A stretch of DNA of 64,000 nucleotides, taken from an uncultured delta proteobacterium (GTDB lineage Bacteria; Myxococcota_A; Polyangia; Fen-1088). Shown here one piece after another: positions 5,895 to 29,563 of this stretch (within the stretch, counting starts at the first letter, position 1; each line of letters begins with the position of its first letter). Made by a program: the position numbers and the translations under genes. Location of the stretch: positions 960,001-1,024,000 of the forward strand of contig CAWCMR010000025.1 of assembly GCA_963796685.1 (NCBI GenBank). The letters run 5' to 3'. The notes under the pieces were generated by a model that saw only the letters and a list, made by a program, of their open reading frames with translations, searched no databases and was not told where the DNA came from.

Positions 5895-5949
5895 GCCCCA
5901 CCATGCCATTCCCTGCCATACCGGCGGCACCACGAGTTAGTCCGCGGCC

Positions 5950-6024
5950 TTCATCGGTCGACTTGAAGTCGACGATGGCGACCTCACCGGTGTCGACGCG
6001 GCGAATGAGGTCGATCCGACCGCG
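5950..6024 (-). pseudogene. Short fragment of a PD-(D/E)XK nuclease domain (helicase/nuclease C-terminus type)
   Basis: RGRIDLIRRVDTGEVAIVDFKST matches G-R-I-D...I-x-D-F-K. Confidence 0.55.
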
Positions 6025-7093
6025 GTGCTGGCCTGGTCCGGGCTGGCTTCTCGACCACGGGAGGCTTTGACGGGGCCTTGAGCCCGTACGCCAGGCGAGC
6101 GGCATTCCCGGTGACCAAAGCCTTGAACGCCTGCGACTGAGCGCGCGCCACCCACGGGCTGGGTAGCGCCTCGATGGCCAGCCTCAGGCGTGAGGGCAGG
6201 TGGTCGAGCGTGCGACGGATGACGACGTCGGGGATGTTGAGGTACTTGCCGAGAGCTTCGAAGTCGCGCCGTTCGAGGCGGTTTTTCCTGCCATTGATGG
6301 GCAATGCGAGCTCTTCCGAGTCATCCACGAGCAAGCGGACAGGCAAAAGGTCGTAGGCGGGCGAGAGGACGACGCGCCCGGCATCTCGCACCAGCGTCCA
6401 GTTCTTGAGGTGCATGTCGGAGTTGCCGACCAGGAAGGCGAAGACGGTCACCTCCAGCAGGCGCAAAGCATCGTCTCCCGGGGCCGTCGCGAGATCGCGT
6501 ACGAGCTTTCCGGCCTTCTCCATGCTCGAGCGATACTTGTGCAAGGTGGGGAGGCCGGAGAGCTGGCACAGATCTTCGACGTGAATGCGACGAGCGCCAT
6601 CACGATCAAAGCGCCGCGTGATAAACGCCGGCTGCCCGGAGGACAGCGGGATCAAGCCGGCCTCCGCCGTGCGTAGGCCCGAAGCTCGAGCGAGCACCAT
6701 GGTCCAGTGTTCGAGCTCTGGCATGCCTGGATACTCGGGTGCGGGTGGCTTGAGGATGTGCGAGCCGCCCAAGGCTCCGACGATGGTCAATCGTCGATCA
6801 GAGTCGTTTCCCATGAAGGACAGCGACAGCTTGCGCTGGACACCGGTCAGCGCCCATCGCCGGTTCACCGTCTCGATGGCCAGTCTCTCGACGTCAGCCA
6901 AGCCCACGTCCAGCCTGGGGGGAGAGGCCGAGCCGTACAGCGCCTGCGAACAGGCTGCGTGCACGTTTCCACCCTTGCCATGGGGATCGTGGGAGGGCTT
7001 CGAGGACTTGCTGCGTGCGGGCTGAGCCGGACTGAGACCAGCTTCGCCATCGGTCGGCGGACGCAGGCAGATGGGGCAGGCGGGCTTCACCAT
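5984..7093 (-). CDS. hipT: HipA-family Ser/Thr kinase toxin (HipT-like, lacking the N-subdomain)
   Basis: LTGVQRKLSL, HILKP, TRRFDR, EDLCQL, GNSDMHLKNW, LSPAYDL; N-terminal CxxC..HxxC; the C-terminal tail runs into the nuclease fragment. Confidence 0.85.
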   Translation of the reverse strand: MVKPACPICLRPPTDGEAGLSPAQPARSKSSKPSHDPHGKGGNVHAACSQALYGSASPPRLDVGLADVERLAIETVNRRWALTGVQRKLSLSFMGNDSDRRLTIVGALGGSHILKPPAPEYPGMPELEHWTMVLARASGLRTAEAGLIPLSSGQPAFITRRFDRDGARRIHVEDLCQLSGLPTLHKYRSSMEKAGKLVRDLATAPGDDALRLLEVTVFAFLVGNSDMHLKNWTLVRDAGRVVLSPAYDLLPVRLLVDDSEELALPINGRKNRLERRDFEALGKYLNIPDVVIRRTLDHLPSRLRLAIEALPSPWVARAQSQAFKALVTGNAARLAYGLKAPSKPPVVEKPARTRPAPRSDRPHSPRRHR

Positions 7094-7470
7094 GGCAGCA
7101 CGCGCACGGCTCCAATGCACTCAGAGCAGAGGTTGAGGAGCAACCCCACACGGTCGCGCGGGTCGAGCTTCCAGTTGCGTGTGGCGATGTCGAGTAGCCA
7201 GCCTTCAGGCACAAGCCCGTCGAAAAACGGGTGAAGCCCGATTGTCTCCACGGGCTCGACAGACAGGGGCAAGGTCAGCGAAACCGGCTCGGCACCCGGG
7301 CGTGCCAGGTACTCCGGCAGGTAGCGGAACACCACCGTGCCGTCAGGCTGCTCTTCGATCTCGCCGGCCGGGATGTCGCCGAACATCACCCGGCCGCGCC
7401 GCTCGACGACTGCCGGGGCGTGGTCCCCGCTTCGTCTTTTGTCAGTCCTCTTGCGGGTCGTGCGGGCCAT
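7087..7470 (-). CDS. hipS: HipA N-terminal domain protein (HipS-like antitoxin)
   Basis: AGEI...FRY...PVSLTLPL...LHPFFDGLVPEGWLL; overlaps both neighbours. Confidence 0.85.
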   Translation of the reverse strand: MARTTRKRTDKRRSGDHAPAVVERRGRVMFGDIPAGEIEEQPDGTVVFRYLPEYLARPGAEPVSLTLPLSVEPVETIGLHPFFDGLVPEGWLLDIATRNWKLDPRDRVGLLLNLCSECIGAVRVLPW

Positions 7471-7712
7471 CACCGTTCCCCCTTGGGACGCGCCACAACG
7501 CCTAGCCTGAGCCCGAAGTACGCCAGTACTTGTTCGACCCGATCCACCCGCAGGGTAGGCTTACCTCGCTCGAGCTCGCGCAGAAACCGAAGCCCCACAC
7601 CCACGCGCGCCGCGAGCTCGGCCTGTGTGTACCCGAGCTGACGCCGGTGCTCCCGCACCGTCCAGGCGATTTCGCCCACCTCAGATTTCAGCTGTTTCAG
7701 GCTGCGCCGCAT
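7470..7712 (-). CDS. hipB: XRE-family HTH regulator (HipB/y4mF-like)
   Basis: RRQLGYTQAELAARVGVGLRFLRELERGKPTLR; first gene of the three-gene operon. Confidence 0.85.
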   Translation of the reverse strand: MRRSLKQLKSEVGEIAWTVREHRRQLGYTQAELAARVGVGLRFLRELERGKPTLRVDRVEQVLAYFGLRLGVVARPKGER

Positions 7713-7717
7713 TGAAG

Positions 7718-7811
7718 TACCCGTACGGGTATTATGCCAGGCATATGAAGGTAAGTCACCCCGATAGGGTATCAAAAGTGACACGCATGCTATTAGCTAA
7801 CCGATCGGGTA
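7718..7811 (-). promoter_or_regulatory. hipBST promoter with three palindromic operators
   Basis: TACCCGTACGGGTA (7718-7731), ACCCCGATAGGGTA (7758-7771), TAACCGATCGGGTA (7798-7811), 40-bp period; minus-strand GTGACT-N17-CATAAT at 7759-7731. Confidence 0.7.
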
Positions 7812-7945
7812 GCAAAGACTGTGGCTCGCGCCGCGACCCGGGTGCCCCGCGCGGTCGGCATCCTGCTCGAGATGCTGACCCTCGTGCACAAGCTCCAACG
7901 ACCGTCCACCCGACACCGGCAGGGCAAGTCACATGGCAAGCAGAT

Positions 7946-8203
7946 TCACCGCCGGAACAAATCCGTGCGCGCCGTCTCCGTAATGGCGACAATCGCCGGG
8001 TGCTTCAGACGCCGTTCCACGGAGATAGCGTAGTAGCGCTCCCGAACGCCTTCGGCCAGTCCCAATGACACCACTCCGTACTGCCGGCTGACTTCCTTCT
8101 CGATGACCGAGGGAGCGGGGAAAAGTCCGACTCCGTCGTGCCCAAAGACGTTTAGCAGCGCGCCGTCCTCGAATTCGGCCACCACACGAGGTTTGATACC
8201 CAT
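7946..8203 (-). pseudogene. nhaR: 3' fragment of LysR-type activator NhaR
   Basis: GIKPRVVAEFEDGALLNVFG..GVGLFPAPSVI...ERYYAISVERRLKHPAIVAI; HTH domain absent. Confidence 0.75.
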
Positions 8204-8615
8204 CCTGGAACGCCTCGTCCACCTCAACGTCCGCCCGGAAACCTTGGCCGCGCTGGCCTTGGTTCCGCTCATCGAGGTCGTGTGGGCGGATGGCGAAGTG
8301 GACGACAAGGAGCGCGCCACAGTGCTTGAGCATGCCGGGAGCCAGGGCATCGCTCGTGACAGTGTTGAATACGAACTTCTAGTGCGGTGGCTCGCCCACC
8401 GGCCGGAGGACTCATTGCTGGCTGCCTGGCAGCACTACGTGCGGGGACTATGCTAACGCATCTCGGCGGAGGAGCGAGAGGCGCTCAAGCAGGAGCTGTT
8501 GCGGGATGTGCGCGAGGCCGCGAGAGCTTCCGGTGGATTCCTCGGCATGGGGAAGATCTCCAGCCAGGAGAAACAAGTTCTCGCCAAACTCGAATCCAGC
8601 TTCGGTATGGAGTAG
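8202..8615 (+). pseudogene. 5'-truncated TerB-like protein with an internal stop
   Basis: LVPLIEVVWADGEVDDKER...; TAA at 8454-8456; the same frame continues AARASGGFLGMGKISSQEK. Confidence 0.7.
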
Positions 8616-8646
8616 ACTGGCGCTGAGAGCTCAAGCGGACAGCACC

Positions 8647-10737: not shown

Positions 10738-11751
10738 TCAGATGTTGAAACCGAAATTCAACAATGGAAAGCCAAGGGGCAACACCTGGTAGAAATCGCC
10801 GCAGCCACCTTTGCAAATGGGGGCGGCGAACCCGATGTCGCCCCAAATGCTTTCCCCCTTGATGCGCAAGCCGTACAGCAAGAATTCGATCTCACCGAAG
10901 TACGATTTCTTGCTGTCAAACACCCCTGGCGCGACGAATTCGACGCCGAAGGAAGCCCTTTTCCCAATGGGAAAGGAGACACCTCCATAGGGCAGCACCA
11001 GTCCCACGCTCTCGTGGTCAACGAAGAGCCCGTACACCTCGGTGCCGAGGTTGAAGACAACATCCTTGCCGAGCGACAATGTCGGACCGCCGCCAAGGAT
11101 AAGCAGGCTCCAGTTGGCGTTGCCCACGATAGGAGCGAAGAAGCCGCCCAGGCCGTGAAAGGCGATAGCGCCACCCTCGAAGGGCATGGAGACCTTGAGT
11201 TGCGGCATCACGGCGAACAATCCGACAGGAGGACCGGTGCGCAGCCCGATCTCGGCGTTGTCGCTGAGGCCGTAGTTGATGTCCCAGTAGCCCAAATCCG
11301 TGGTCGAAAAGCTGACCTTGCCCTTTTCCGTGGTGTACGCGGTAGGGAATAGGATGATCCTGCCGCGGCCGGGATCGCGATGCTCTGGGGCCTCGGCGCT
11401 CACTTGTTCTATCGGCGGCTGCGCACCGCCGGACCGGCTGGGACGCGGCGGCGCCGGCACCCCATACAGTCGAACGATGGCACGGGCGGCGTGATCGTAC
11501 GTAGCCGGATCTGCCGCCATCCGGTACAGCGTCGGGCGCGCTCGGCCCTCCGGGTCGCCGTTCTCGGCCAGCACGTCGATGCAGTAGAGACGGGGCTGAA
11601 GATCCCGACTGGCGCACAGGGTGAGCACCCGGTCGATGGCCGCGTCAGACGCCGCACTCGTCGGCGGCCCGCCCTGTGCATGCGCGCCGATCGGCCACGT
11701 CACGACAGCAAGTACAAGAGCCAAACCAACTGCTGAGCCTTTTGCCATCAT
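10738..11751 (-). CDS. Hypothetical exported protein, probable outer-membrane beta-barrel C-terminus
   Basis: Signal peptide ending AHA; short HEAT-like segment; amphipathic strands ending LNFGFNI. Confidence 0.65.
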   Translation of the reverse strand: MMAKGSAVGLALVLAVVTWPIGAHAQGGPPTSAASDAAIDRVLTLCASRDLQPRLYCIDVLAENGDPEGRARPTLYRMAADPATYDHAARAIVRLYGVPAPPRPSRSGGAQPPIEQVSAEAPEHRDPGRGRIILFPTAYTTEKGKVSFSTTDLGYWDINYGLSDNAEIGLRTGPPVGLFAVMPQLKVSMPFEGGAIAFHGLGGFFAPIVGNANWSLLILGGGPTLSLGKDVVFNLGTEVYGLFVDHESVGLVLPYGGVSFPIGKRASFGVEFVAPGVFDSKKSYFGEIEFLLYGLRIKGESIWGDIGFAAPICKGGCGDFYQVLPLGFPLLNFGFNI

Positions 11752-12084: not shown

Positions 12085-13356
12085 CTAGGATAGGTACAGC
12101 AGCACGTCTGCCCAAGTTTCATCGGGAACGGAAACCTTCGACTTGTAGGACATCGGCCACTTCTTCTGCGGTTGAAAACCCAGCTTGTTGGTTTGCAGGA
12201 ATCGGTTGGCCACAGCGCCGTTCTGAAAGAACGATGCCTTCGGCCACGCGGTTTGATGGGTGTTCAGGGTGGTCGTCAGACTGGATCCGCGCACCTGGTC
12301 GACGGAATCGCGCTGTTCCTGGGGTGGCGTTGCGTACAGCCGGTCGCCAGCGACATTGAAGGCGCTGTGAAAGTAGCCGATGGGCAGGGTCTCGATGGGC
12401 CTTTTCGCCACGTCTTCTTCGGACGTCATGTAGTCGACGCCGACGATATTCTTGCAGAACCAGCAATACGCGTAGTTGTAGTCCCATATCCGGAACTTCT
12501 TGTCCACGCACGTCGACCGTCGCGCATCCGGGTCGTCCTTGTGTTTGTACGTGACGACCTTGACGCCCTTATCGTTCAGCTCGTAATAGCCGATGTCGAT
12601 CAACAGCTCTTCGTATTTTGCCTTGTGAAAGTACGAGATCTGGCCCTGAGTGTTTCTGGATATTTGGCCGTGGACATAGGCTTCCATGCACCGGTCGTAG
12701 TCCTTGGCAGGCCAATTGTGGTTTCTGAACCACATCCAGCATCCGTTGGTGTTGTGCAAACCGTGGATGTAGTTCTCGTGCATCAAGTTCTGGCCGCCTT
12801 TGTCCGACAACGCGTGCCAAATCGAGTAGTGGGCCGCGTCCGCCATGGGACAGACCGAGAGCACGCACTTCTTTTCTTCACATTGGTCGAGCGACGCATT
12901 CGGCGCAAGGCGCTTCGGCTTGACCTTTGGCCAGTTGTCATCCGTGACCCAGAACCGCTGGGTGTACGCGACGAGCATGGCTTTCTCATTCGGCCGACAC
13001 CAGAACACGGCGCATTCGGCATTCGACCTGACGCCCTTGGCGTCCTGCGTTCCAATCGCCCCTCCCATGCTGCCCTGAAGCCCATCACTTGTCTTCTGGA
13101 TGAAGACGACCAGTCGGCCATCGGCTCCGAAAGCGTTGCTGCTCCGGTAGGAACGCAAAACGCCCACCTGTTGGGGCGTGAGGCGAGCGATGAACGCGGT
13201 GAGAGCATCGAGGTTGAGGTCGTAGTTGCTCAGCTGGTAGTTGCCACTGGACTTGGGCTTCGGGAACTCATGGATCATCACCTCGTGGAGGCCCCGGTCC
13301 GAGGTGACGACGATGTCGGCCGTGCCGACCGCGGGTATGGATTTTCCGTTTGCCAT
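12085..13356 (-). CDS. Hypothetical protein, possible L,D-transpeptidase-like (His/Cys) enzyme
   Basis: 423-aa ORF, no signal peptide; YIHGLHNTNGCW; 23 bp downstream of the OmpA-like gene. Confidence 0.65.
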   Translation of the reverse strand: MANGKSIPAVGTADIVVTSDRGLHEVMIHEFPKPKSSGNYQLSNYDLNLDALTAFIARLTPQQVGVLRSYRSSNAFGADGRLVVFIQKTSDGLQGSMGGAIGTQDAKGVRSNAECAVFWCRPNEKAMLVAYTQRFWVTDDNWPKVKPKRLAPNASLDQCEEKKCVLSVCPMADAAHYSIWHALSDKGGQNLMHENYIHGLHNTNGCWMWFRNHNWPAKDYDRCMEAYVHGQISRNTQGQISYFHKAKYEELLIDIGYYELNDKGVKVVTYKHKDDPDARRSTCVDKKFRIWDYNYAYCWFCKNIVGVDYMTSEEDVAKRPIETLPIGYFHSAFNVAGDRLYATPPQEQRDSVDQVRGSSLTTTLNTHQTAWPKASFFQNGAVANRFLQTNKLGFQPQKKWPMSYKSKVSVPDETWADVLLYLS

Positions 13357-13379
13357 CTTGTTCGTTCCGTTCGGGTCGA

Positions 13380-14825
13380 CTAGACCGGCCGGGTGGCGAC
13401 GCAGTCCTTGTCCTTGAAGATCTTGTTGAGCTCGGCCTTGGTGTCCTGATTGCTCGCCAACTTGTAGTCGGACCGGAAGGCCGACTCGGCCTCGGCATAG
13501 GTCATGTCCTTTTCGTCATAGCCGAGGTCGTGCAGTCGCTGCGTCGCGACCGCGTCCGAGGTGGTCGCGGTTGCATCGTCGATCTCCGACGCTCCACAGT
13601 CGATGTGAAGCTCGCGCGAGTATAGGTAGACGTCCTGTCCCGCCAGGCTGCCGAGTGTCTCCCATTCGACTTCGATGGTTGCAGGGCAAACCGACGGCTC
13701 GGGAACCTGCGCCCACCCGTCAGCGTCCGCTTGGTACGCGTCCGACCATTGCGCATCGCCGGGAAAGCGATAGCGGTAGAAAGTCTCGGGCATGAGCTTG
13801 CCCGCGTGATCGTGCAGCCGAACACGGACGAGGTTGGTCCCGGCCGGGAAGGGAGCCGATGGATCGAGGGGAAGGTTTTTGCGTTTGAATTTGGCCGTAT
13901 CGAACAGCTCGCAGCCGGCTGAAGCGCAGGTGCCGCTGTCGAGGCAGGGAATGGCGGGCTTCTCGTCGGGGTCCAGGAACATCACTTCGACGCGACGGTT
14001 GGTCTGGCTACGGTAGTTGTTTCTGCCCACCTCATCGATGGGCTTGCTCTCGCCGCACGCCACCAGGTGCTGCGCCGAATCGAAATACACGACTTGTTCC
14101 CGCGCGGTCTCGAGGCCTTGCTCGTCGGTTCCCAGCTTGGTCATCAAGTCGCGGCAGTAGCAGTCGTAGACCGCGCCCCAAGTCTCCTCGTTGAACGTCC
14201 CGTTTTCCCCGATCTTGGGATTGCTGCCACGCAGATCGCTGAGATTGTAGCTCTTCTGGAATTTCACCGTGGCGTTCCACAGCGTGGGATTTCCAGTGGG
14301 ATATCCGCAAGGCCAGACGAAGGTGGTCTGCGCCCAGTTGAGGATATCCTGATAGTCGTCCCACAGCACACCCTTCTTCTTGCCGCTGCCGCCGTCGGGA
14401 TAGCGCTGCTCCGCGGTCAGATGGGGTCCGAAGCAGGCATGGGCGAATTGCTGCCGGTCGCCGGCGAGCATGCCGTGCACGGCCTCGGCACGAAGGCGGG
14501 ACAGCGTGACGTTGTACTCGTCGCTGCCAGAGGTGTCGGTGTGACCGGCAACAAGGATGGTCTTTCCTGTGCGGGTCTTCGCGTACTGCAAGCAGGCTCG
14601 TATCACGTCGAGCCCGGGACGCGATTCTCCGTCTGCCGAGGGCGCCGTCTCTCCGGGCAGCAGGACCGCGCTGTTGAAGCGAATCAGCGTGTCGCCGACT
14701 TCGAGGAATTCTATCTCGGGGTCGCAAACCATGATTCGGTAGGCGTGACCACTCTCCAAGCTCTGGGTCAGCCCTTGCCCAGAGAGCTGTTTTCGCTTCA
14801 CGCGGATGACCACGTCGTCTGCCAT
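13380..14825 (-). CDS. OmpA-like domain protein with peptidoglycan-binding and transthyretin-like modules
   Basis: AGHTDTSGSDEYNVTLSRLRAEAV ... CGESKPI..NRRVEV; VRVRLHDHAGKLMP..ADADGWA; QRLHDLGY..AFRSDY. Confidence 0.8.
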   Translation of the reverse strand: MADDVVIRVKRKQLSGQGLTQSLESGHAYRIMVCDPEIEFLEVGDTLIRFNSAVLLPGETAPSADGESRPGLDVIRACLQYAKTRTGKTILVAGHTDTSGSDEYNVTLSRLRAEAVHGMLAGDRQQFAHACFGPHLTAEQRYPDGGSGKKKGVLWDDYQDILNWAQTTFVWPCGYPTGNPTLWNATVKFQKSYNLSDLRGSNPKIGENGTFNEETWGAVYDCYCRDLMTKLGTDEQGLETAREQVVYFDSAQHLVACGESKPIDEVGRNNYRSQTNRRVEVMFLDPDEKPAIPCLDSGTCASAGCELFDTAKFKRKNLPLDPSAPFPAGTNLVRVRLHDHAGKLMPETFYRYRFPGDAQWSDAYQADADGWAQVPEPSVCPATIEVEWETLGSLAGQDVYLYSRELHIDCGASEIDDATATTSDAVATQRLHDLGYDEKDMTYAEAESAFRSDYKLASNQDTKAELNKIFKDKDCVATRPV

Positions 14826-14990
14826 TGGAATCTCCGGTCCAGAATGGGCCTAACGGTCCACGAGCATGCTACACGTTGCCGATTGGCAAGGCCAGGCGAT
14901 CTGCCGACATCACGAGGCTTCCCGTCGCTTGCCGAGGGTGTATAGTCGGCCGTCTATCGAAGCGCGAACACGTCGGCATCCTGGGCAAGC

Positions 14991-15635
14991 ATGAGCGAAG
15001 ATCCGTACCGCACCCTGAAGGACGGGCAATCGGTGGAAAGCATCGCCGCCGCCATTGGCTTGCCGATCGAGACCATCTGGAACGCCCCGGAAAACCGAGC
15101 CCTGCGCGAGCTGCGCGGGGATCCACACGTGGTGAACCCGGGGGACAAGCTCTTCGTGCCACCGACCGCCCCGAAGACGTATACGTTCGAGACCGGCAAG
15201 CGCCACCAGGTCGTCATCCCGACTGTCAAGTCGAAGCTGCAACTTCAGTTCAAGCATGAGGGAAAGCCCCGTGCATTTCAGCCCTACGTGTTGAAGATCG
15301 ACGGGGGCAAGGAAAAGACCGACAAGACCGATGACCAGGGCAAGATGGAAACGGAGATTTCGGCCCTGGCCAAGACGGCAACCATCAGCGTGGGCCAAGG
15401 CAAGGACCAGGTGTCTTACACCCTGGAGCTTCGCGGTCTGCACCCGACAAGCGTGACCACGGGTTGGCAGGCGAGGCTGCACAACCTCGGGTATTCGGTG
15501 GGCAAGGTCGACGGCCAGCCCGGCCGGCGGAGCGAAGCTGCGCTCTGTGCTTTTCAAGAGGATCAGAAGAAGCAGCCCACCGGTAAGCCGGATCAAGACA
15601 CCCAAGACAAATTGAAGGAGCTCCGTGGCTGCTGA
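14991..15635 (+). CDS. LysM + transthyretin-like + PG_binding_1 protein
   Basis: LKDGQSVESIAAAIGL..TIWNAPEN..PGDKLFVP; KTDDQG; QARLHNLGY.VGKVDG..G..SEAALCAFQ. Confidence 0.85.
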   Translation: MSEDPYRTLKDGQSVESIAAAIGLPIETIWNAPENRALRELRGDPHVVNPGDKLFVPPTAPKTYTFETGKRHQVVIPTVKSKLQLQFKHEGKPRAFQPYVLKIDGGKEKTDKTDDQGKMETEISALAKTATISVGQGKDQVSYTLELRGLHPTSVTTGWQARLHNLGYSVGKVDGQPGRRSEAALCAFQEDQKKQPTGKPDQDTQDKLKELRGC

Positions 15636-16716
15636 CCGTCCGGCGTTGACTGCCGAGGAGCGTGACGCCCTGGCCAGCGCGGACGGCTGGCGGCAGGCCA
15701 CCCGGGACCAGCACTTTTGTCTGACCAACCGCCTGGTCGCCGATCTCGACATCGTCGGTATCGATATGGAGAATGCCGACTTCGTCGATGTCGTGTTCCG
15801 CAATGTCCGCTTCCGCGATACGCGCTTCCGGCGAACACGATTCGCCGACGTGACCTTCGACTGGTGCGGCTTGACGAACACCGGCTTTCACGGCTGCGAG
15901 ATGACGAAATGGGTGTTCACCGACAGCGAAGCCAAGCACCTCGAGCTTCGCGACTGCTCCGTCCGTGGTTGGTCGTCGCAGGGCTGCACCTTCGCATGCT
16001 GCGTCTGGCAGGACGTGCAAATCCATGGGTTCGTCGACCACATGGGCCTTTTCGAGGATGCGACGTGGACCAACGTTGTCATCGACCAACCGCACTGGAG
16101 GCGAACGCTGCTGCGCCGGCCACGGCTCAATCGAGTCACGCTCGTCCAGGGCAGCCTGATCGGCGTTTCGATGGTGAACGGCGAGGCCCAGGGACTTGCG
16201 CTGCGCGAAATCGATCTGGATGGTCTCGAGATCATGCTCGGCTCGTACCAGGGGCTCGCGTTCGAGCAGATGACGGGTGTCGGCTTGCGCTTGGCGGAAC
16301 TGCAGTGCCAAGGCATCGGGCTGGTGGGCAGCGGGCGACTCACGGGTGTAAGCGCGACTGGCATCGACTGTACCGGGATGGTTGTCCACGGCAACCTGGA
16401 CCTGTCGCTATTCGGCATCGGCTACTCCAACATTCGCGATCTCCTGATCGCTGAATCACGGATATGCGGGTTGGCCATCCGTGACACGCGCGTCTCCGGT
16501 GAAAGCCTGGTCCAGTCCTCTTGGCTGGACGGCGTGGATTTCGAAAGCAGTCAAGTCGACGGCCTCGCCGTCGAGAATGCCACCATGACCACCGTGCTGC
16601 GGGTACCTGGCGCGCATTTCCGGCGATTGCGACTGGCGGCCGTCACCTATCAGGCGCCCTTCGAAATCGAGGGGCATAGCGTGACCTACCAGGAGGGCGA
16701 TGCCTTTCAGCGGTAG
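15625..16716 (+). CDS. Pentapeptide-repeat protein
   Basis: ADFVD VVFRN VRFRD TRFRR TRFAD VTFDW periodicity; overlaps the upstream stop. Confidence 0.85.
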   Translation: MAADRPALTAEERDALASADGWRQATRDQHFCLTNRLVADLDIVGIDMENADFVDVVFRNVRFRDTRFRRTRFADVTFDWCGLTNTGFHGCEMTKWVFTDSEAKHLELRDCSVRGWSSQGCTFACCVWQDVQIHGFVDHMGLFEDATWTNVVIDQPHWRRTLLRRPRLNRVTLVQGSLIGVSMVNGEAQGLALREIDLDGLEIMLGSYQGLAFEQMTGVGLRLAELQCQGIGLVGSGRLTGVSATGIDCTGMVVHGNLDLSLFGIGYSNIRDLLIAESRICGLAIRDTRVSGESLVQSSWLDGVDFESSQVDGLAVENATMTTVLRVPGAHFRRLRLAAVTYQAPFEIEGHSVTYQEGDAFQR

Positions 16717-16736
16717 CTGGCGGCTGGACCAACACC

Positions 16737-19376
16737 ATGGCAAGGAAGCCCACTTCGTTCACTCTCTTCTGGCGCGCCGAGCACGCCGCGCCCCGGACCT
16801 TGCGAACCGGGCGCGTGGCCTTGCACCACCTCAATGTGCTCGACGACCTGCCACCGCTGCCCGCGATCGTGCTTTACCCCGCGTTTCTTACCCCTGCCGT
16901 CCACGTCGCCGGCGCGCACGAGGGCATGTTCGAGATCTTGATCTTCGCGCGCAAAGCTCCGGCGCTGACCGCATCGGATGTCAATTGGCATCTCAAGATC
17001 GCCCCGGGCATGGATCCGCAGAAGCATGCGTCGGACCAGCCCCTGTTCGCGAACCCCAAGGACAACATCCTTGTCGAGGTCGTCGTGCCGGATGGCAACG
17101 GCACGCTTTCCACCAAGAATGTTTTCCACGGACAGCTCCACCCCACGGTACGCAACCGATTGGCGACCGACCCGAGCACGACTCCGCTTGGGACGTACTA
17201 TGCGGTTCGCATCAAGGAAGGTTGTCTCACCGATCCCCTGGTGACGGGGGGAGGCGGGCGCACGCCGACGCGCGAGCTGCAGGACGAGCTCATCCAGGCG
17301 GTCTTGATGCGCCTCAATGGTCCCGCGCTCCGCGGTCGAGACGGACGCGGCACCCATTGTTTCGCGACCGCCGACGGCATCGTCGATCTGTCCCAGGTCG
17401 AGCGCAAGAAGCCCATCTGCGCTCTCCATCCCCTGTTTTTCTACCCTGCGGGCGGCCTGGCCCCCGCCAGCTTCGGACACGTCTCCGACGTTCATGTCAG
17501 CGCCCGCCAGGACGTATTGCGGCGCTCGCAGGCGCGCGTGATCGACGATGAACGGGCGCTTGCCGACTCGCCACCCATCGGCGATCTCACGAATGTATGT
17601 TCGCACAGCCTGACGGCCATCCTCCAGGCGCTCGGCAAGAGTGACCGCTGGGACATTCTTTTGGCCGGCGGCGACTACGTGGACCACAGTCGCAATGTCT
17701 ATCCCCACGCGGCCGGCAGCCCCGCCCTGGACCCGAACCGCCTGAGCCCGCTCGCGGTCTGGAACCTCATGGATCTGCGGCCAGATCACGGCTACAACGA
17801 CCACTACCAGGCCTTCGTGGATCTCGTGAGCTTCTTCACCCAGATGACCTGGTTTGGCGAAACCTTCGGCAAACCCATCTTCAGCGTCACCGGAAACCAC
17901 GATTGTTACGATGGCGCGTTCGGCATTTCTCCACGCAAGCTCCGCGTTCGCGCCAACGAGGGCATCCCTGCCGACCACAACCTGACCTTCTACGAAGCCA
18001 TTCTGGCCTTCGGGGAAACCTGGGATATCCTGCAGCGCAACAGCTCGCCGTTCACCGCCGCTCTATTCGAGTGGTACTACGCGGTCTTTACTCCCTTCAG
18101 CGATTACGCCGTCGAGCTTGTGAACCAGCGCGTGGTAGGGCTGGCCTGGGGGGAGGACGAGGAGATCGTCAGTGGACCTGGCTCCTACGGTCAGGGGCTC
18201 ACGCACTTGCCCAGGGCCAAAGAAGCCGTCACCGATGCGCAGCTCGCGGTCTTCAACCAGGGCTTTTCGGCCGAGAAGAAGACCGTGCTTTTCACCCACT
18301 TCACCTACCTCAGCTATAAAGAGGAAGTGAGTGAATTGCCCGCGCCCGTCGGCGATACGCGCGAAATCGACGTCGCCGGTCCCGGCGTCATGCGCAAAGG
18401 CGATCCCTTCTCGCACTTCGACATGGGCACCTTCGAGAGAAACCGACGAGCACTCTATGCCTCGGTGGCGGACGCTCAACGCACGCAATTCGCGATCACG
18501 GGCCACTCCCATCGCAAGGGGCTCTACTTCCTCGCGGCGCCCAACGGCGATCACTACCCCGCGGAGATGCATGGTTTCCGCCAGCCCCTCGCCATCGCCA
18601 GCCTGCCCAACAGCGCGAATCGAACTCCGATCGTGGTGTCCGACTCGGCGGGGCCCTTGCCTCGCCGGAACGTGAGAGGTGAGTTCGTCGAGTGGGGCAG
18701 CGATCGGCCAGGAGGAAGCCTGGTCGTGGTCGGGAACGACGGGCGCGTGGCGAGCGTGGAGGCTGTCTCGGTCCCTGACGACGCCCCGAACGTTCGCCGT
18801 GCCAAGCCGCGCCTGGCAGTCGTGCTCGAGTACCTCCACGTGACCAAGAACCACATTTTCGACGCGATCGAGAGCCTGCCGTTTCCCGCCAATCGGCCAA
18901 CCCAACCCCGGTACGGACATGGCCTCGACATCAAATTCAGCAGGGGCTGCCCTGCGCAGCGCTGCCGTCTGGTGTCCGTCGTACTCTACTGTCGCGCTTC
19001 CGCAACCGCTCCATGGCGGCAAATTCCACTCACGGTGGGCCAATGGAAGGGGACCGCCAATCCAGTCACAGTGCGCTGCCAGGCCAACCCGGCCGATGTA
19101 GCGCTCTTCCTGGAGTGGCTCACCATGACCCCCAAGTCTGGCCGCTTCATGTCCATGCGTTGGCAAACCACCGATCCCGAGATAGATGGCGTGTACGAAT
19201 CCAATAGTGCTTGGAACATCGAGGTCGATGCCCGGCCGTCGCGCACGAACTTCATGCACCAGGACCAATCCACATACGTCATCATTCCCACCGCCGCTTC
19301 GGACGGCACCAATCCTCGGCCCGTGGTCGAGGCGCCAAGCTTCGAGTGGCGTCGTCGTTTTCCACAATACCAATGA
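16737..19376 (+). CDS. Large calcineurin-like metallophosphoesterase (candidate effector)
   Basis: All five motifs present: SDVHV, GGDYVD, TGNHD, FTH, TGHSH; no signal peptide. Confidence 0.85.
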   Translation: MARKPTSFTLFWRAEHAAPRTLRTGRVALHHLNVLDDLPPLPAIVLYPAFLTPAVHVAGAHEGMFEILIFARKAPALTASDVNWHLKIAPGMDPQKHASDQPLFANPKDNILVEVVVPDGNGTLSTKNVFHGQLHPTVRNRLATDPSTTPLGTYYAVRIKEGCLTDPLVTGGGGRTPTRELQDELIQAVLMRLNGPALRGRDGRGTHCFATADGIVDLSQVERKKPICALHPLFFYPAGGLAPASFGHVSDVHVSARQDVLRRSQARVIDDERALADSPPIGDLTNVCSHSLTAILQALGKSDRWDILLAGGDYVDHSRNVYPHAAGSPALDPNRLSPLAVWNLMDLRPDHGYNDHYQAFVDLVSFFTQMTWFGETFGKPIFSVTGNHDCYDGAFGISPRKLRVRANEGIPADHNLTFYEAILAFGETWDILQRNSSPFTAALFEWYYAVFTPFSDYAVELVNQRVVGLAWGEDEEIVSGPGSYGQGLTHLPRAKEAVTDAQLAVFNQGFSAEKKTVLFTHFTYLSYKEEVSELPAPVGDTREIDVAGPGVMRKGDPFSHFDMGTFERNRRALYASVADAQRTQFAITGHSHRKGLYFLAAPNGDHYPAEMHGFRQPLAIASLPNSANRTPIVVSDSAGPLPRRNVRGEFVEWGSDRPGGSLVVVGNDGRVASVEAVSVPDDAPNVRRAKPRLAVVLEYLHVTKNHIFDAIESLPFPANRPTQPRYGHGLDIKFSRGCPAQRCRLVSVVLYCRASATAPWRQIPLTVGQWKGTANPVTVRCQANPADVALFLEWLTMTPKSGRFMSMRWQTTDPEIDGVYESNSAWNIEVDARPSRTNFMHQDQSTYVIIPTAASDGTNPRPVVEAPSFEWRRRFPQYQ

Positions 19377-20564
19377 GACCGCAAACGACAAGAGGGCACA
19401 CCAGTGTATTCGTGGGGGTGGCAATCATGGCTTTGACAGTGGATGCGCAGGCACGTCAGAACCTGTGGCTGTACCGCATGGATGCGAAACTACAGCAGAT
19501 AGGTGCGAAAAGCTGGGCCGTGCCGGAGGGCGCGGTGCTGGCACCGCTTTTCGTCATGCCAGGGGGAGAGATCGTGGCGCTGGTGCAGCCGCCAACCCCG
19601 GCCCCTCTTCTACTCATCCGCTGGAGCACAGAAGGCAAGGAACTGCTACGGCGACCGCTCCCGGCGCGCGAGGCGTTCGACGTGACGGCAACGGCCGATC
19701 GGAACCTGGTCATCGTGACAGGCTCCGAGCTGTTGCGCGTCTCGACTGCGGATGGGGAGGCCGTCGCACGCCGGTCGCTGCCTTTTCCGGCCAAGCCGGC
19801 CTCCACCGTGAAGGCCTCTGTGGGCGGCGCCTGGTTTGCCTTTTCCGATCGTCTCGTCCACGTGCGCTTCGACGCCCAGGACACGACCCTGACGTTTCCG
19901 CTCACCAAGTTGCCCGGAGGCGAGCTGCGCGCAAGGCGGCCTCTGCCAGAAGGTCGAGGCCGAGCACGGGATCCTTGCCCTCACAGACGACGGATGTCTC
20001 GTGACCGAGTACGTGACTCACGAATTCAAGGTGAAGGGGACATACTCGCCCGACACCGCGACCGTGACGGTCCTGACATCGGTGGCAGCCACGGGCAAGC
20101 CACAGGCGCAGATCCAGATCGGAAAAGTGACCAGTAGCCTCGAGTGGTTCTGGTCGGAGAAAGGAGGCCCGAGCAACCCATCTTTCATACCAAGCGACAT
20201 GGGCCTCGCGCGAACCAGATATGACAGCGATAACAGTGTTGTCAGTGCCGCCCCTCTCGCTGATGGCGGGGTTCTTCTATTAACGCGGCGTGATAGGGCG
20301 CTTGTTCGACTCGATCGCTCGCTTCGAAGAGTCTGGCTGCAGAAGGTCGACAGCCAATTCGGCACCGACTTCTCGCCACCTTGGACGAGCGGCATTCTCT
20401 TTCTCCCCGGAGGAAGCACGTTTTGCGAGATATCCCCCGACGGGCGCCGGCACCGCGACGGCTACTACTACGATGAAGTTCCCAAGTCCCGCACTGAACG
20501 GACACCGATCCGGGTCGCAGTTGGTCAAAACCAGGCGGATGAATGGCTGATCGTCAATTACTGA
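19373..20564 (+). CDS. Secreted beta-propeller-like protein, copy 1 (candidate immunity), +1 frameshift at ~19893-19943
   Basis: ATGA overlap with the phosphoesterase stop; signal peptide ending DAQA; the two ORF halves join as KLPEASCAQGGLCQKVEAEHG. Confidence 0.7.
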
Positions 20565-21752
20565 GCTCGCGCGCTCCCAGAATCTACGCAAGCATATGGA
20601 TCGGGGTTGCAATCATGGCATTGACGGTGGATGCGCAGGCACATCAAAACCTATGGGTGTACCGCCTTGATGCGAAGCTACAGCAAATCGGTTTGAAAAG
20701 CTGGGCCGCGCCGGAGGGCGCTGTGCTGGCACCGCTTTTCGTCATGCCAGGGGGAGAGATCGTGGCGCTGGTGCAGCCGCCAACCCCGGCCCCTCTTCTA
20801 CTCATGCGCTGGAGCACAGAAGGCAAGGAACTGCTACGGCGACCGCTCCCGGCGCGCGAGGCGTTCGACGTGACGGCAACGACCGATCGGAACCTGGTCA
20901 TCGTGACAGGCTCCGAGCTGTTGCGCGTCTCGACTGCGGATGGGGAGGCCGTTGCGCGCCACCCGCTGCCTTTTCCGGCCAAGTCGGCCTCCGCCGTGAA
21001 GGCCTCTGTGGGCGGCGCCTGGTTTGCCTTTTCCGATCGTCTCGTCCACGTGCGCTTCGACGCCCAGGACACGACCCTGACGTTTCCGCTCACCAAGTTG
21101 CCCGGAGGCAGACTGCGCGCAAGGCGGCCTATGTCAGAAGGTCGAGGCCGAGCACGGGATTCTTGCCCTCACAGATGATGGATGTCTCGTGACCGAATAC
21201 GCAACCCACGAATTCAAGGTCAAAGGGAAATACACGCCCGATACAGCGACCGTGACGGTCCTGACATCGATCACAGCCACGGGCAAATCACAGGCGCAGA
21301 TCCAGATTGGAAAAGTGACCAGTAGCCTCGAGTGGTTCTGGTCAGAGAAAGGCGGCCCGAGCAACCCATCTTTCATACCAAGTAACATGGGCCTCGCGCG
21401 AAGCCGATATGACAGCGATGATAGTGTTGTCAGTCCCGCCCCTCTCGCCGATGGCGGGGTTCTCCTCCTAACGCGTCAGGACAGGGCGCTTGTTCGACTC
21501 GATCGCTCGCTTCGAAGAGTCTGGCTACACAAGGTCGATGATGAGTTCGGAACCGACTTCTCGCCACCTTGGACAAGCAGCATTCTCTTCCTTCCCGGAG
21601 GGGGAACCTTTATTGAGATATCCCCCGATGGGCGCCGGCACCGCGAGGGCTACTACTACGATGAAGTTCCCAAGTCCCGCACTGAACGGACACCGATCCG
21701 GGTCGCAGCTGGTCAAGACCAGGCGGGCGAATGGCTGATCGTCAATTACTGA
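20543..21752 (+). CDS. Secreted beta-propeller-like protein, copy 2 (candidate immunity), same +1 frameshift at ~21081-21131
   Basis: Tandem paralog of copy 1 with the same signal peptide and C-terminus EWLIVNY. Confidence 0.7.
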
Positions 21753-21769
21753 AGGCCAAGTATCCCGGA

Positions 21770-22930
21770 TCAGGCTGCGCTTGCAGTGGCGTTCCGAAGC
21801 GACAAGGTGCAGGGGCCTTTCGGCGCCTCCTCGATGCGTAGCTGGTTCTTGTCCGTCGTGCCTTCCTGCTGGCTTCCATCGTTGAACTTGAGCTCGTAGT
21901 GCAGCCCCTCCACAGACTTGCCTTGCTCGTCGACGAAGACAAGCGACAGCAAAGCCGTTTGCACCTCGGGCGGACCAGCCGGGGCTGCAGGCGAAGGTGG
22001 CTCGTCGGGGACATCATCGTCGGGGGAGGACGGCGCGGCGCCGGATCCCACTGGCTCGTGCACGTCGAGCAGTCGGAGCTTGCACTGGCCAGGATCGATG
22101 TCGTGGTTCGCCCACAGCCCGCCGCCATCGCCGAAGTCGCCCGTCACGACGGTACCATCGGGCAGCTCGATCTCGTAGCGACCCGCGCACGCATGGCCTG
22201 CCTCGTTCACCGCCTCGATCTCGATCCACTCCGGCTTCCTCAGCATCGCCTTCATCCGCGACGGCGTGATGGGGTCGTCCGGCACCGAGCTCGAGAACGA
22301 TGGAGCGTTGCTGCGGCGAAGAAGAACCACGCCATTCGGAAACAAGGGTGGCCGCCAATCCGAGGCAAGCACGTCGCCAGCCCTGCGCAGCAGACTGGAC
22401 AGGTCCTTATCGGCGCCGGAGCTCTTGGCCAGCTCATCCAGAACCTGGACGGCGCTGGCATGGGGGACCACCTCGTAGCTATTTCGGTCGGGTAGGCGGG
22501 TCAGATCTTGGTCCGCGACCAGCTTGTAGTGTCGTCCGGCGTTGCTCAACCGACGGTGGGTTCTGCGCTCGATTTCCCGCACCAACTGGCGCTGCTCGGC
22601 GGTGCTGTCTTGCGCCACTGCCGAACCATCCGCCCTGGAAAGGACAACCAGGCTGCAGTTCCGAATGGCGTCACCGATCATGGCCAGAAGCGCCTGATCC
22701 GTGATCGACGAAAGCGGAAAGCTCGTCAGCCGAACTTCGCGTGCGAAGGTGCGGACGCTTACCAGATCTTGCCGCCTGATCTGAGCGACCAAGGGATATC
22801 CCCGCCTTGGGGACAAGGATTGAAAGGCGTCCCCTCGACACAAGCGTATGGCGTCGGTAGCTCGCACCAAGACGAGCTGCTCCGTGTGCCAAGATGGCGA
22901 CAGCAAGAGCGATGGACACTCGAGAGCCAT
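21770..22930 (-). CDS. Hypothetical protein with two C-terminal transthyretin-like (carboxypeptidase regulatory-like) modules
   Basis: WIEIEAVNEAGH...YEIELPDGTVVTG...IDPGQCKL and LVFVDEQGKSV...YELKFNDGSQQEGTTD...GPCTL. Confidence 0.75.
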   Translation of the reverse strand: MALECPSLLLSPSWHTEQLVLVRATDAIRLCRGDAFQSLSPRRGYPLVAQIRRQDLVSVRTFAREVRLTSFPLSSITDQALLAMIGDAIRNCSLVVLSRADGSAVAQDSTAEQRQLVREIERRTHRRLSNAGRHYKLVADQDLTRLPDRNSYEVVPHASAVQVLDELAKSSGADKDLSSLLRRAGDVLASDWRPPLFPNGVVLLRRSNAPSFSSSVPDDPITPSRMKAMLRKPEWIEIEAVNEAGHACAGRYEIELPDGTVVTGDFGDGGGLWANHDIDPGQCKLRLLDVHEPVGSGAAPSSPDDDVPDEPPSPAAPAGPPEVQTALLSLVFVDEQGKSVEGLHYELKFNDGSQQEGTTDKNQLRIEEAPKGPCTLSLRNATASAA

Positions 22931-28143: not shown

Positions 28144-28243
28144 ATTGTCGCGGGTTGTGCTTCGCCCGTCGAGGGGCTTGGCGGGGAGCCAAGTTCGGCG
28201 GACAATGGACGCGTCCACTCTAATGAATCGGCCGGAGAACCTC

Positions 28244-29563
28244 ATGGGCAAGGCGAAGATCGTGAGCTTCATCCTACTCGGCGCTCTCCTCGGCGCGGGA
28301 TGCAGCAGTGGCAGCGACAACCGGCAAGGCAGCGGCGGCACCACCGCCGTGGGCGGCGCGCTGTCCTCTGGCGGAATCCTCGGCCAGGGCGCGTCCGGCG
28401 GCGCATCCAGCACCGGCGGTACATCAGAGCGTGGAGGCTCATCGAGCTCAAACGGTGGCGCGCCGGGCACGGGTGGCTCGAAGGGATCAGGGGGGACTGC
28501 GGCAGGTGGCGTTTCTGGGAGCGCCACGGCAGCGTGGTCCATGGGCTACTACGCCAGCTGGGCACCCGACCAATACCCCATCTCGGAGATCGAATGGTCC
28601 GGGCTGACCCATATTGCGATGGCGTTCTACCTGCCCAACCAAGACGGCTCCATGACCCTTGCTGGAGGCAACGCCAAGCTCGCGACCGATCTCATCGCGG
28701 CGGCCCATGTCCACGGCGTGAAGGCCATCGCCTCCATCGGCGGCTCCGATTCTCAGACCGCCTTCAAGCAGGCCACGGCGAGCGGAACCGCCGCCACGTT
28801 CGCGGCCAACCTCGTTTCATTGTTGACGACCGCCGGCTACGACGGCATCGACATCGACTGGGAGCCCATGGACAAAACCGACGAGCCGGCGGTGATCGAC
28901 CTTGCCAATCGCCTCCGCAAGGCCCAGCCCGGCGCGCTTCTGACCATTCCCATCGGCGAGATCAACGTCAACTTGGGTGCCGACTTGTCGGGCTTCGCCG
29001 CCATCGCTGCCGTCTACGACCAACTCAACATCATGTCCTACGGCCAGGCCGGGGCGTGGCAGGGCTGGAAGAGCTGGCACTCGAGCGCGCTCTACCAGAC
29101 CGACTCGGCCACGCCCACGTCGATCGATTCGACGGTGAAGCTCTATCTCGCGGCATCCGTCCCGGCCGCCAAGCTCGGCATCGGTATCGGCTTCTACGGC
29201 CTGTGCTATTCGTCGCCCGTGACCGGTCCCGACCAGACCCTCGACGGTTCCACGCTGGTCGCCGGCGACGGAACCATTTCCTATGCCAATATCGTGACCG
29301 AGTACTACGGCGCCGACGCCCGCCAGTGGGATTCCCTGGCCCGGGTTCCCTACCTGTCTTTCACGTCGGCGCACGCGCCGGACGGCTGCACCTACATTTC
29401 CTACGACGACGAGCAGTCCATCGCCGAGAAGGGCGCCTACGTCAAGGCCCAGGGGCTGGGCGGCGTCATCCAGTGGGAGCTTAACGAGGGCTACCTCTCG
29501 TCGGCACCGGCCGGGCAACGCAATCCCTTGCTCAAAGCCGTCTCGGCAAGCGTCCTTCACTGA
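28244..29563 (+). CDS. GH18 chitinase-like lipoprotein
   Basis: Lipobox GAGC; ASIGG; YDGIDIDWEP; NIMSY; ISYDD; GLGGVIQWEL. Confidence 0.9.
   Translation: MGKAKIVSFILLGALLGAGCSSGSDNRQGSGGTTAVGGALSSGGILGQGASGGASSTGGTSERGGSSSSNGGAPGTGGSKGSGGTAAGGVSGSATAAWSMGYYASWAPDQYPISEIEWSGLTHIAMAFYLPNQDGSMTLAGGNAKLATDLIAAAHVHGVKAIASIGGSDSQTAFKQATASGTAATFAANLVSLLTTAGYDGIDIDWEPMDKTDEPAVIDLANRLRKAQPGALLTIPIGEINVNLGADLSGFAAIAAVYDQLNIMSYGQAGAWQGWKSWHSSALYQTDSATPTSIDSTVKLYLAASVPAAKLGIGIGFYGLCYSSPVTGPDQTLDGSTLVAGDGTISYANIVTEYYGADARQWDSLARVPYLSFTSAHAPDGCTYISYDDEQSIAEKGAYVKAQGLGGVIQWELNEGYLSSAPAGQRNPLLKAVSASVLH

Follow-up and report, generated by a model that had tools for sequence, protein, structure and literature searches.

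Probable orphan type VI secretion cargo cassettes with wall-binding head proteins in an uncultured delta proteobacterium

A 64,000-nucleotide stretch of DNA from an uncultured delta proteobacterium, a soil myxobacterium, called the window throughout, contains at positions 12085-22930 an island of genes that we lettered A to H and compared with related loci. The window is contig C25:960001-1024000 of the genome G000, which comprises 7.3 Mb in 26 contigs and is 88.6% complete, and the related loci were drawn from metagenome-assembled genomes (MAGs) titled uncultured Myxococcales, delta proteobacterium or Polyangiaceae. The genes probably form orphan cargo effector cassettes of a type VI secretion system (T6SS), in which wall-binding proteins, here called heads, act as loaders and are accompanied by likely immunity genes. 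This reading is supported by domain architectures, gene fusions, gene order, linkage to spike genes in relatives and the presence of a T6SS, and from these we infer loading, secretion, site of action, toxicity and immunity for the cassettes. An earlier note, made from the sequence of the window, had proposed that the genes are a self-contained kit which loads cargo and anchors it to peptidoglycan, serving a T6SS whose genes lie elsewhere. The proposal is supported by comparison, not by experiment, and fits every comparative test that was run; the alternative offered in the same note, an uncharacterised predation system, is not needed.

Cassette 1 is read on the minus strand and consists of a head protein, B (13380-14825 (-), 481 amino acids), followed by a candidate cargo toxin, A (12085-13356 (-), 423 amino acids). 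Cassette 2 runs on the plus strand in the order C, D, E, FG, FG. It starts with a second head protein, C (14991-15635 (+), 214 amino acids), and continues with a pentapeptide-repeat protein that is a candidate chaperone or accessory protein, D (15625-16716 (+), 363 amino acids), a metallophosphoesterase that is a candidate periplasm-acting effector, E (16737-19376 (+), 879 amino acids), and two tandem copies of an immunity-like gene, FG (19373-21752 (+)). At its end, in convergent orientation, lies H (21770-22930 (-), 386 amino acids), which has an N-terminal domain, H-N below, and two transthyretin (TTR)-like sandwiches. The junctions suggest operons: B and A are separated by 23 nucleotides, the start of D overlaps the end of C by 11, 20 nucleotides lie between D and E, and the ATG of F overlaps the stop codon of E (ATGA). 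The positions given for these genes in the earlier note agree with our listing of open reading frames, and the GC content at third codon positions (GC3), 0.75-0.79, backs the coding status of A, B, C, D, E and H.

The strongest evidence for a link to the T6SS comes from two fusions. In the same genome, a gene at locus L062 (7432-8640) encodes, in a single polypeptide, a Tox-PAAR-like domain (E 4.1e-11), a sandwich and a head that resembles C (27% identity, E 6e-17). In a metagenome protein of 573 amino acids, P0269, an Hcp domain (E 9.1e-15) is fused to a domain that resembles B (31% identity along residues 38-308 of B, E 4e-36). We also noted that the wider L062 stretch (G000:C1:145000-157052, 5291-8640 (-)) reads as a PAAR-like/sandwich/LysM-like/sandwich/PG_binding_1 fusion followed, with an overlap of 4 nucleotides, by a 714-amino-acid protein that has no Pfam match and is a candidate for another effector in this genome.

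Relatives of the island are also found next to spike genes. In the genus there are 56 distinct H-type places (58 match rows, two rows being second pieces of one gene). Four of them lie within 3.1 kb of a match to the vgrG profile Phage_GPD (G033:C29, G036:C43, G041:C33 and G041:C42, two of which look orthologous) and a fifth is 11 kb off; from genome size and vgrG number, a rough chance expectation is about 0.4 such places. By Pfam, VgrG is divergent from the H-like gene in L018 and L029, where in L029 a B-like OmpA+PG_binding_1 gene follows; it stands in tandem after the H-like gene in L030, two genes after it in L031, and divergent from a C-like gene in L027. The VgrGs adjoining the relatives are about 740 amino acids long and show only core domains in Pfam. 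The locus L055 has the C-terminus of a VgrG, a C-like gene and two genes without an assigned family, and L054 has a Tox-PAAR-like gene with a sandwich, a C-like gene and an 841-amino-acid protein without an assigned family, each in this order.

The earlier note had recognised no Hcp, VgrG, PAAR or sheath gene in its part of the sequence, and our profile scans likewise gave no such match inside the window. It had also suggested a search of the genome for the T6SS core, which was found on another contig than the cassettes, C15, with TssF at 54663-56522, Hcp at 58061-58450 and TssC at 58933-59784, together with a stand-alone DUF6484 gene and a PAAR-like gene. The genome has ten Phage_GPD matches, none of them in the window. 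All 16 genomes in which the order has an H-N domain also carry TssC, compared with 38 of the 73 that lack the domain; being kin, the genomes are not independent of one another, and the pattern is weak support for the T6SS link. Separately, a second, divergent TssC-like gene occurs at G000:C23:904-1722 and, at a single place each, in most genomes of the genus (E 1e-27 to 1e-41, compared with about 1e-135 for the canonical gene), and its recurrence suggests a second contractile system in the genus.

H belongs to a family of 61 homologs, all from metagenomes or MAGs. They have the first ~230 residues in common, with the motifs DWRPP and LTPSQ, and vary after that: the C-terminal part consists of one to three sandwiches, of a B-like block with an OmpA-like domain, or of a C-like LysM-sandwich-PG_binding_1 block. 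In two relatives H is fused to a C-like head ahead of D and E (L034:14361-15956 and L036:1113-2750). We found the H-N domain (residues 1 to ~207) in 16 of 89 genomes of the order, namely in all 13 of the genus, G000 included, and in three from two other genera. Copy number in the genus is between one and ten per genome, and this genome has four paralogs. The domain has no match in Pfam, and residues 1-230 of H had no usable match in the ESM Atlas.

What follows the H-like genes is highly variable. At 18 loci the gene just downstream is almost always unique to the locus. Where Pfam recognises this gene, it encodes a Tle1-like phospholipase (L023), Amidase_2 (L017), YkuD (L024), an FGE-sulfatase (L027) and, directly after the H-like gene of L016, DUF6484, a family given as the T6SS accessory protein TvpC in passages of a 2026 preprint (bioRxiv 10.64898/2026.02.23.707444). 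HEAT or TPR proteins are encoded farther downstream, and PLD, three times, and one GH5-like enzyme were also found directly behind heads. At two paralog loci of this genome (L012 and L013) the gene next to the H-like one encodes a protein of 470 or 498 amino acids without an assigned family, and after it comes Imm71/Imm72, tabulated as immunity to Ntox48 in PMC3482391. Hypervariable neighbours combined with Imm71/Imm72 are the signature of polymorphic effector-immunity cassettes. One locus is of a different kind: in L047 (G041:C107, 1076-7215 (-)) a C-like head is followed by a carrier protein, two radical SAM proteins and ketosynthases, with no hydrolase, which is either chance or an unusual cargo set.

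The feature that connects B, C and H is a small beta-sandwich. The earlier note had described four copies of one module in these proteins. There are indeed four sandwiches in the three proteins, two in H and one in B according to the predicted structures and one in C according to a profile match, but a single shared sequence module holds for only three of the four. The AlphaFold model of H (36-sequence alignment, pLDDT 84) has an alpha/beta N-terminal region at residues 1-207 and sandwiches at 232-294 and 321-384, and a hidden Markov model (HMM) of the first module recovers the second (E 5.6e-8). The top VIA-align match of the second module is residues 778-834 of 6sjl_A, which form the TTR domain of Tle1-bound VgrG1 (Z 6.3, root-mean-square deviation (rmsd) 1.8, 56 residues), tied within 1 Z with SpyCatcher, which comes next at Z 5.8. 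In Foldseek the best local match of H is SpyCatcher/CnaB2 (TMt ~0.6, rmsd 2.5, 64 columns, E ~0.009), and the whole models of H and B gave nothing at E <=0.001.

The module of C (15222-15440 (+), residues ~78-150) is similar to the second module of H when the C family is aligned with the H family (hhalign probability 97.8%, E 7.5e-13), a score to which PG_binding_1 columns, present in some H relatives, contribute; an iterated HMM from the H module reaches the C module at E 0.005 only. For the sandwich of B (13593-13844 (-), residues 328-411 by the model strands) no significant link to the H modules was found by sequence, as the hhalign probability is 3.4% and the iterated HMM missed B. Its fold is similar to 3e8v_A (Z 6.8), to 4zjh_A, the MG1 domain of E. 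coli alpha-2-macroglobulin (Z 6.2), and to the Salmonella TTR-like protein 2gpz (TMt 0.40), and the sandwiches of B and H match the same set of small sandwiches (3e8v, 4zjh, 8b73, 6rpt, 3kls, 8qox). In Pfam, CarboxypepD_reg or SpaA match homologs, not the proteins of the window. By profiles and predicted folds, the modules of B, C and H appear transthyretin/CnaB-like, the fold matches of B and H all lying at Z below 8.

The three proteins also agree with the earlier note in lacking signal peptides. A crude hydropathy script found no N-terminal hydrophobic stretch in B, C or H; it found none in any of the 81 B-family proteins, and none was seen in the E or H families, despite the wall-binding domains in these families.

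The heads combine these sandwiches with wall-binding domains. C carries PG_binding_1 at residues 157-210 (Pfam E 2.2e-10). Its N-terminus, residues ~6-57, is LysM-like at 13.4 bits, below the cut-off of 20.9; a homolog (L018:19140-19793) has a LysM score of 20.2 bits, and the LysM pattern G..N..R..GD..P is visible in the family alignment of 18 sequences. C-like genes are common in the genus, with 41 matches in 12 of 13 genomes. B matches OmpA in Pfam (E 2.4e-7, 31.5 bits with a cut-off of 27.2), and in its AlphaFold model (40-sequence alignment, pLDDT 85.5, pTM 0.74) residues 35-287 are OmpA-like by VIA-align, with Z 11.3 to 9uu2_A and Z 10.3 to the T6SS wall-binding domain of TagL, 5m38_A. 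The structure search gave 27 chains with Z of at least 8, so the OmpA-like identity is reached by both profile and fold. The domain is split by a helical, PG_binding_1-like insert at residues 123-226, which is similar to the wall-binding N-terminal domain of the phiKZ gp144 endolysin, 3bkh_A (Z 6.6, rmsd 2.8, 72 residues). Beyond the OmpA-like part B has a Cys-rich linker, the sandwich at 328-411 and a C-terminal three-helix unit at 424-471. The earlier note had seen fusions to OmpA, LysM and PG_binding_1; OmpA in B and PG_binding_1 in C were recovered, and the LysM-like part belongs to C, not to B. The B family, with 81 matches, reaches by source names past the myxobacteria to Chitinispirillaceae and Planctomycetota, and some members have Amidase_2, CarboxypepD_reg or SpaA prealbumin-like domains. 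The wall-binding domains of the heads point to a role outside the cytoplasm of the producer.

Complex modelling of the TTR-like modules with the enzymes, another suggestion of the earlier note, was done for C and E. C (18-row alignment) was modelled with residues 1-230 of E (31 rows) in three runs and with three controls. The runs scored 0.84, 0.86 and 0.86 (median 0.86), compared with 0.00 for the best of the three controls. Of 157 solved complexes 116 attain this mark, and of 215 mismatched pairs only 2 do, counts that hold only roughly for a model built on our own alignments. The runs agree in at least 97% of contacts, with a partner pLDDT of at least 66. According to the model, the confident contacts are between residues 81-91 and 140-151 of C, the first and last strands of the sandwich, and residues 20-40 of E, and additional contacts join E to the PG_binding_1 domain of C. 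The N-terminal segment of E (16782-16856 (+), residues 16-40) is in this way predicted to add onto the sandwich of C. We regard the model as support for binding, not as its demonstration; in silico, the sandwich of C would hold the N-terminal region of its cargo by strand addition. In the stand-alone members of the E family (P0065-P0076; window 16737-16900) we further observed an aromatic-N/D-L-F/V-W motif near residues 8-12 and 'ILYPALLTP' near residues 45-53. These motifs flank the predicted docking strand and could be a loading signature.

E matches Metallophos (PF00149; E 1.2e-7, 32.8 bits with a cut-off of 21.5), and the motif residues D251/H253, G312/D313, G386-N387-H388-D389, H521 and G589-H590-x-H592 are invariant in 33 sequences. 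By sequence E is a calcineurin-like metallophosphoesterase that keeps all metal-binding motifs and looks active. The earlier note had spoken of two candidate enzymes, which fits E; A is not shown to be an enzyme. The E family is large, 379 cluster representatives at 50% clustering, and its profile has no match among PDB sequences at E up to 1. Among 22 relatives that were domain-scanned, 18 of them picked for extra length, three carry an N-terminal OmpA (P0087 and P0094, both with PG_binding_1, and P0178, OmpA alone), three an N-terminal LysM (P0090, P0095 and P0096, two of these with BACON_2) and two an N-terminal Peptidase_M23 (P0156 and P0185). In the head-fused forms for which alignment ranges were compared, the extension takes the place of the first ~175 residues of E.

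The neighbourhood analysis suggested by the earlier note showed that the order C-(D)-E-FG recurs in two genomes of the genus. E-like genes are found there in G034, with three full copies, and in G041, and each of them is preceded by a C-like gene or an H-N/C-like fusion. The order C-like, E-like, FG-like is present at three loci of G034, and the order H/C fusion, D-like, E-like at G034:C23 and G041:C239. The pentapeptide protein reported in the earlier note, D, was confirmed by Pfam (Pentapeptide_4, E 1.2e-14). A D-like gene lies in the same position, between the head and the E-like gene, at two of four loci (L034, 28% identity, and L036, 27%), and is missing at L033 and L035, where the rest of the cassette is alike. 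Elsewhere, in L031 (G041:C42, 7210-9724 (-)), pentapeptide and DUF5122 beta-propeller proteins are encoded upstream of an H-like gene and vgrG, an arrangement that echoes D.

The genes behind E were described in the earlier note as duplicated secreted genes. The tandem duplication is real, but the 'genes' are halves of one split gene. FG copy 1 (19373-20564 (+)) and copy 2 (20543-21752 (+)) form a 1188-nucleotide tandem repeat with 91% nucleotide identity, and in both the frames of F and G are split by the same one-base frame change, located between 19893 and 19912 in the first copy and between 21081 and 21100 in the second. The start of F is signal-peptide-like. In G034, the FG relatives are single proteins of 403-459 amino acids that directly follow E-like genes and occur in arrays, the first half of each aligning to F and the second half to G; in L034 the array consists of five FG-like genes plus E fragments. 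Because these relatives are unbroken proteins covering both parts, F and G represent one interrupted gene of ~400 amino acids. Comparison of the two copies gives a ratio of nonsynonymous to synonymous substitution rates of 0.52 (F part) and 0.18 (G part) when each part is read in its own frame, and of 0.63-3.3 when it is read in a wrong one. After the duplication, constraint acted on both halves in their respective frames, and the split FG is therefore either expressed or a recurrent assembly error. Among sequencing reads, one soil-metagenome run contains 5% of the sampled words. A comparable case was seen on contig C15, where the canonical TssC (G000:C15:58933-59784; L001, L002, L004) matches as three pieces in different frames, its relatives having a single frame of ~500 amino acids. 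Taken with the FG frame change, these pieces hint at assembly indel errors or at real decay of the sheath gene.

In cassette 1 the partner of the head gives fewer clues. A has no match in Pfam, NCBIfam or PADLOC and no usable match in the ESM Atlas. Among 5.8 billion proteins only two distant homologs were found, with 30% and 28% identity, which have conserved His/Cys-containing motifs in common with A. By its position A is a candidate toxin. About 330 nucleotides downstream of A, a gene (10738-11751 (-), GC3 0.75) encodes a 337-amino-acid protein with a signal-peptide-like start and no family match in Pfam, NCBIfam or PADLOC. It is possibly an immunity protein or an unrelated envelope protein, and its membership of the cassette is uncertain.

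These observations can be put together into a proposed mechanism. C would be a free-standing head whose sandwich captures the N-terminal strand of E by edge-strand addition, and would thereby do in trans what some VgrG spikes achieve in cis with a terminal TTR domain. H has a genus-specific N-terminal domain and two sandwiches; relatives fuse it with a C-like head, and such genes adjoin vgrG. Most likely H links the head to the spike. D, presumably a pentapeptide beta-helix, would be an optional accessory protein. E would be injected into the periplasm of a neighbouring cell and held on the wall by the peptidoglycan-binding domains; its action is placed in the periplasm because of the signal-peptide-like segment of F and the wall-binding domains of the heads. 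FG, a signal-peptide protein encoded in arrays after E-like genes, would be the periplasmic immunity protein of the producer. B would be the other type of head, with an OmpA-like domain, inserted PG_binding_1 and then a sandwich, and A its orphan candidate toxin.

A more general form of this scheme is tentative. In it, the loading of spikes is modular and acts in trans: free socket proteins, made of a TTR-like sandwich and wall-binding domains, might capture a plug strand of otherwise unrelated enzymes, H-N might couple the sockets to VgrG, and the sockets might travel with the cargo and pin it to the peptidoglycan of the victim. E might then be the first metallophosphoesterase T6SS effector family and act on a wall-associated phosphoester, for example a lipid-linked wall precursor or a phosphodiester-linked wall polymer.

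Several observations weigh against orphan T6SS cassettes. No vgrG, hcp or PAAR gene adjoins the cassettes in the window or the H-type genes at the four H paralog loci of this genome, and for 52 of the 56 H-type places in the genus no Phage_GPD match lies nearby, with many contigs being short. None of A to H matches DUF4123, DUF1795 or DUF2169 in Pfam scans at E up to 10. H-N has no clear fold match, its best hits being at Z 4.2-5.1 (split-barrel flavin-binding-like and other folds). The B sandwich is tied to the other sandwiches by fold alone, and the sandwich matches, all with Z <8, can reflect a common arrangement. The calibration of the C-E model is rough, as given above. A is without a recognisable toxin domain and has just the two homologs. 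The frame change is present in both FG copies, so that immunity is perhaps broken, perhaps translated as two pieces, or the change is an assembly indel. PG_binding_1 or LysM with a hydrolase and no signal peptide is also the architecture of phage endolysins. Finally, the organism is uncultured, and the reading comes from sequence comparison and models.

Among the rival explanations, the one that survives best, unlikely as we consider it, is that the heads are themselves the toxins, i.e. injected wall-binding proteins that clog or cross-link the peptidoglycan of the target, the neighbouring enzymes being independent effectors. It would explain P0269, in which the B-like OmpA/PG_binding_1 part is the sole passenger behind Hcp with no other Pfam domain, and the many copies of the heads, some of which seem to be without a recognisable enzyme neighbour. 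However, E-family enzymes are fused to such heads in one polypeptide, the complex model puts E on the sandwich of C with controls at 0.00, and the gene that directly follows the head genes is the enzyme, not an immunity-like gene. The explanation overlaps with a loader role, as one head could be both.

We also find it improbable that the same weapons are delivered in another way, by a Tad-like Kil apparatus, outer-membrane exchange, outer-membrane vesicles or lysis, so that the T6SS linkage would be incidental. The lack of spike genes beside the window cassettes and the four paralog loci, and the 52 H-type genes not near a Phage_GPD match, speak for such a delivery. The covalent fusions to Hcp and PAAR-like domains, however, tie B-type and C-type heads to T6SS parts specifically, and the tight adjacency of relatives to vgrG and the presence of TssC in all 16 H-domain genomes also speak against it; no search aimed at Tad/Kil or TraAB linkage was made. 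Very unlikely is, last, an origin as phage-derived or housekeeping wall enzymes, that is endolysin-like lysis or remodelling modules instead of injected effectors: the match of the B insert to phiKZ gp144, the Amidase_2, M23 and LysM domains of relatives, a phage integrase at one related locus (L022) and a HipBA-type toxin-antitoxin module 4 kb away in a variable region are in its favour, but no phage structural, holin or terminase match was found among the open reading frames scanned, and the genes occur one to ten times in a genome beside hypervariable partners, FG genes with signal peptides stand in arrays behind E, Imm71/72 follow paralogs and heads are fused to Hcp and PAAR-like domains, all of which argues against it. 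Orphan T6SS cargo cassettes remain the reading that we prefer.

Pfam left A, F, G and H without a match; neither NCBIfam nor PADLOC contributed anything on the window proteins beyond the OmpA domain of B, and among the PADLOC defence sets only that OmpA part touches the ZorB models (E 4e-6). The left flank holds a HipB/HipA-type module at 5984-7784 and small open reading frames without an assigned family, the right flank EamA and PLD-type genes. The module on the left consists of three overlapping genes on the minus strand, HTH_3 (7470-7784), a protein with only the HipA N-terminal domain (7087-7473) and a HipA_C kinase (5984-7120), a layout that we take to be closer to the three-part HipBST toxin-antitoxin than to the two-gene HipBA. 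To the right, 5-9 kb from the cassettes, are a GH18 chitinase-like gene (28145-29563) and a GH43+CBM6 gene (30650-32323), which belong to polysaccharide degradation and are unrelated to the cassettes.

How spikes recognise their diverse cargo is only partly understood; what is known are several adaptor families, few in number, and VgrG or PAAR proteins extended at the C-terminus. There is precedent for orphan islands of effector and immunity genes, for T6SS effectors that bear LysM or PG_binding_1, for VgrG or PAAR proteins with TTR sockets, and for pentapeptide and DUF6484 accessory proteins. New, as far as our literature searches reach, would be the combination of socket and wall anchors on free-standing proteins of three types, the H-N domain, and the metallophosphoesterase family with its FG partner. 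Among the papers listed, judged by title or abstract, no metallophosphoesterase or calcineurin-like T6SS effector was found, and neither was a free-standing LysM-TTR-PG_binding_1 protein for T6SS. If a socket is really placed on separate peptidoglycan-binding proteins, one spike could carry many enzymes and aim them at the wall after injection. The H-N domain could serve as a marker, together with the two head types, to flag effectors in uncultured predators, a large unstudied metallophosphoesterase family (the 379 representatives) gains a candidate immunity partner, and the predicted C-E interface provides a concrete hypothesis at the level of residues.

The known T6SS adaptors belong to DUF4123 (Tap/Tec), DUF1795 (Eag) and DUF2169 (TvpA), and are described as cytoplasmic helpers. 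B, C, D and H resemble adaptors and accessory proteins, whose small genes stand between spike and cargo and are required for loading, but match none of those families, and the heads differ from the adaptors in their peptidoglycan-binding domains. The accessory classes listed in sections of the preprint on the Tvp proteins (bioRxiv 10.64898/2026.02.23.707444) are pentapeptide TvpB and DUF6484 or DUF3540 TvpC, so that a pentapeptide protein, as in D, is part of one class and the DUF6484 gene after the H-like gene in L016 recalls another. Unlike in Tvp class III, which consists of DUF2169, pentapeptide, DUF3540 and PAAR, Pfam scans gave D no DUF2169, DUF3540 or PAAR match as company among the window cassette genes.

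The cassettes are similar to polymorphic toxin systems, as portrayed in parts of Zhang et al. 2012 (PMC3482391), in having a conserved trafficking element, either N-terminal or upstream, a hypervariable toxin and tandem immunity arrays. They differ in that trafficking element and toxin are mostly separate genes here and H-N is without a Pfam family. Among myxobacteria, a close parallel is TsxE/TsxI of M. xanthus, in excerpts of PMC5801462 an orphan effector-immunity pair linked to vgrG2, where TsxE has an amidohydrolase 2 domain plus LysM and is encoded directly after vgrG2. Both systems are myxobacterial, combine a LysM or LysM-like part with a hydrolase, have a presumed periplasmic immunity protein and lie away from the core cluster. 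Unlike in TsxE as presented there, the window encodes the wall-binding part and the enzyme, a metallophosphoesterase, in separate genes that have no vgrG next to them.

For the docking itself, a model of A. baumannii VgrG17 with Tae17 is a precedent: as described in PMC11796386, the N-terminal region of the effector contributes a single strand that completes one of the sheets of the TTR domain, and Tae17 carries LysM next to its docking region. In our model residues 20-40 of E similarly lie on the first and last strands of the C sandwich, and C has a LysM-like N-terminus. The EAEC VgrG1-Tle1 complex (PDB 6SJL) likewise uses a small beta-sandwich as cargo socket, and 6sjl_A is the top match of the second module of H, with only 18% sequence similarity to the VgrG TTR domain. 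Unlike the TTR sockets of VgrG, the sandwich is here predicted on free-standing proteins with LysM, PG_binding_1 or OmpA-like domains, or on a PAAR-like protein.

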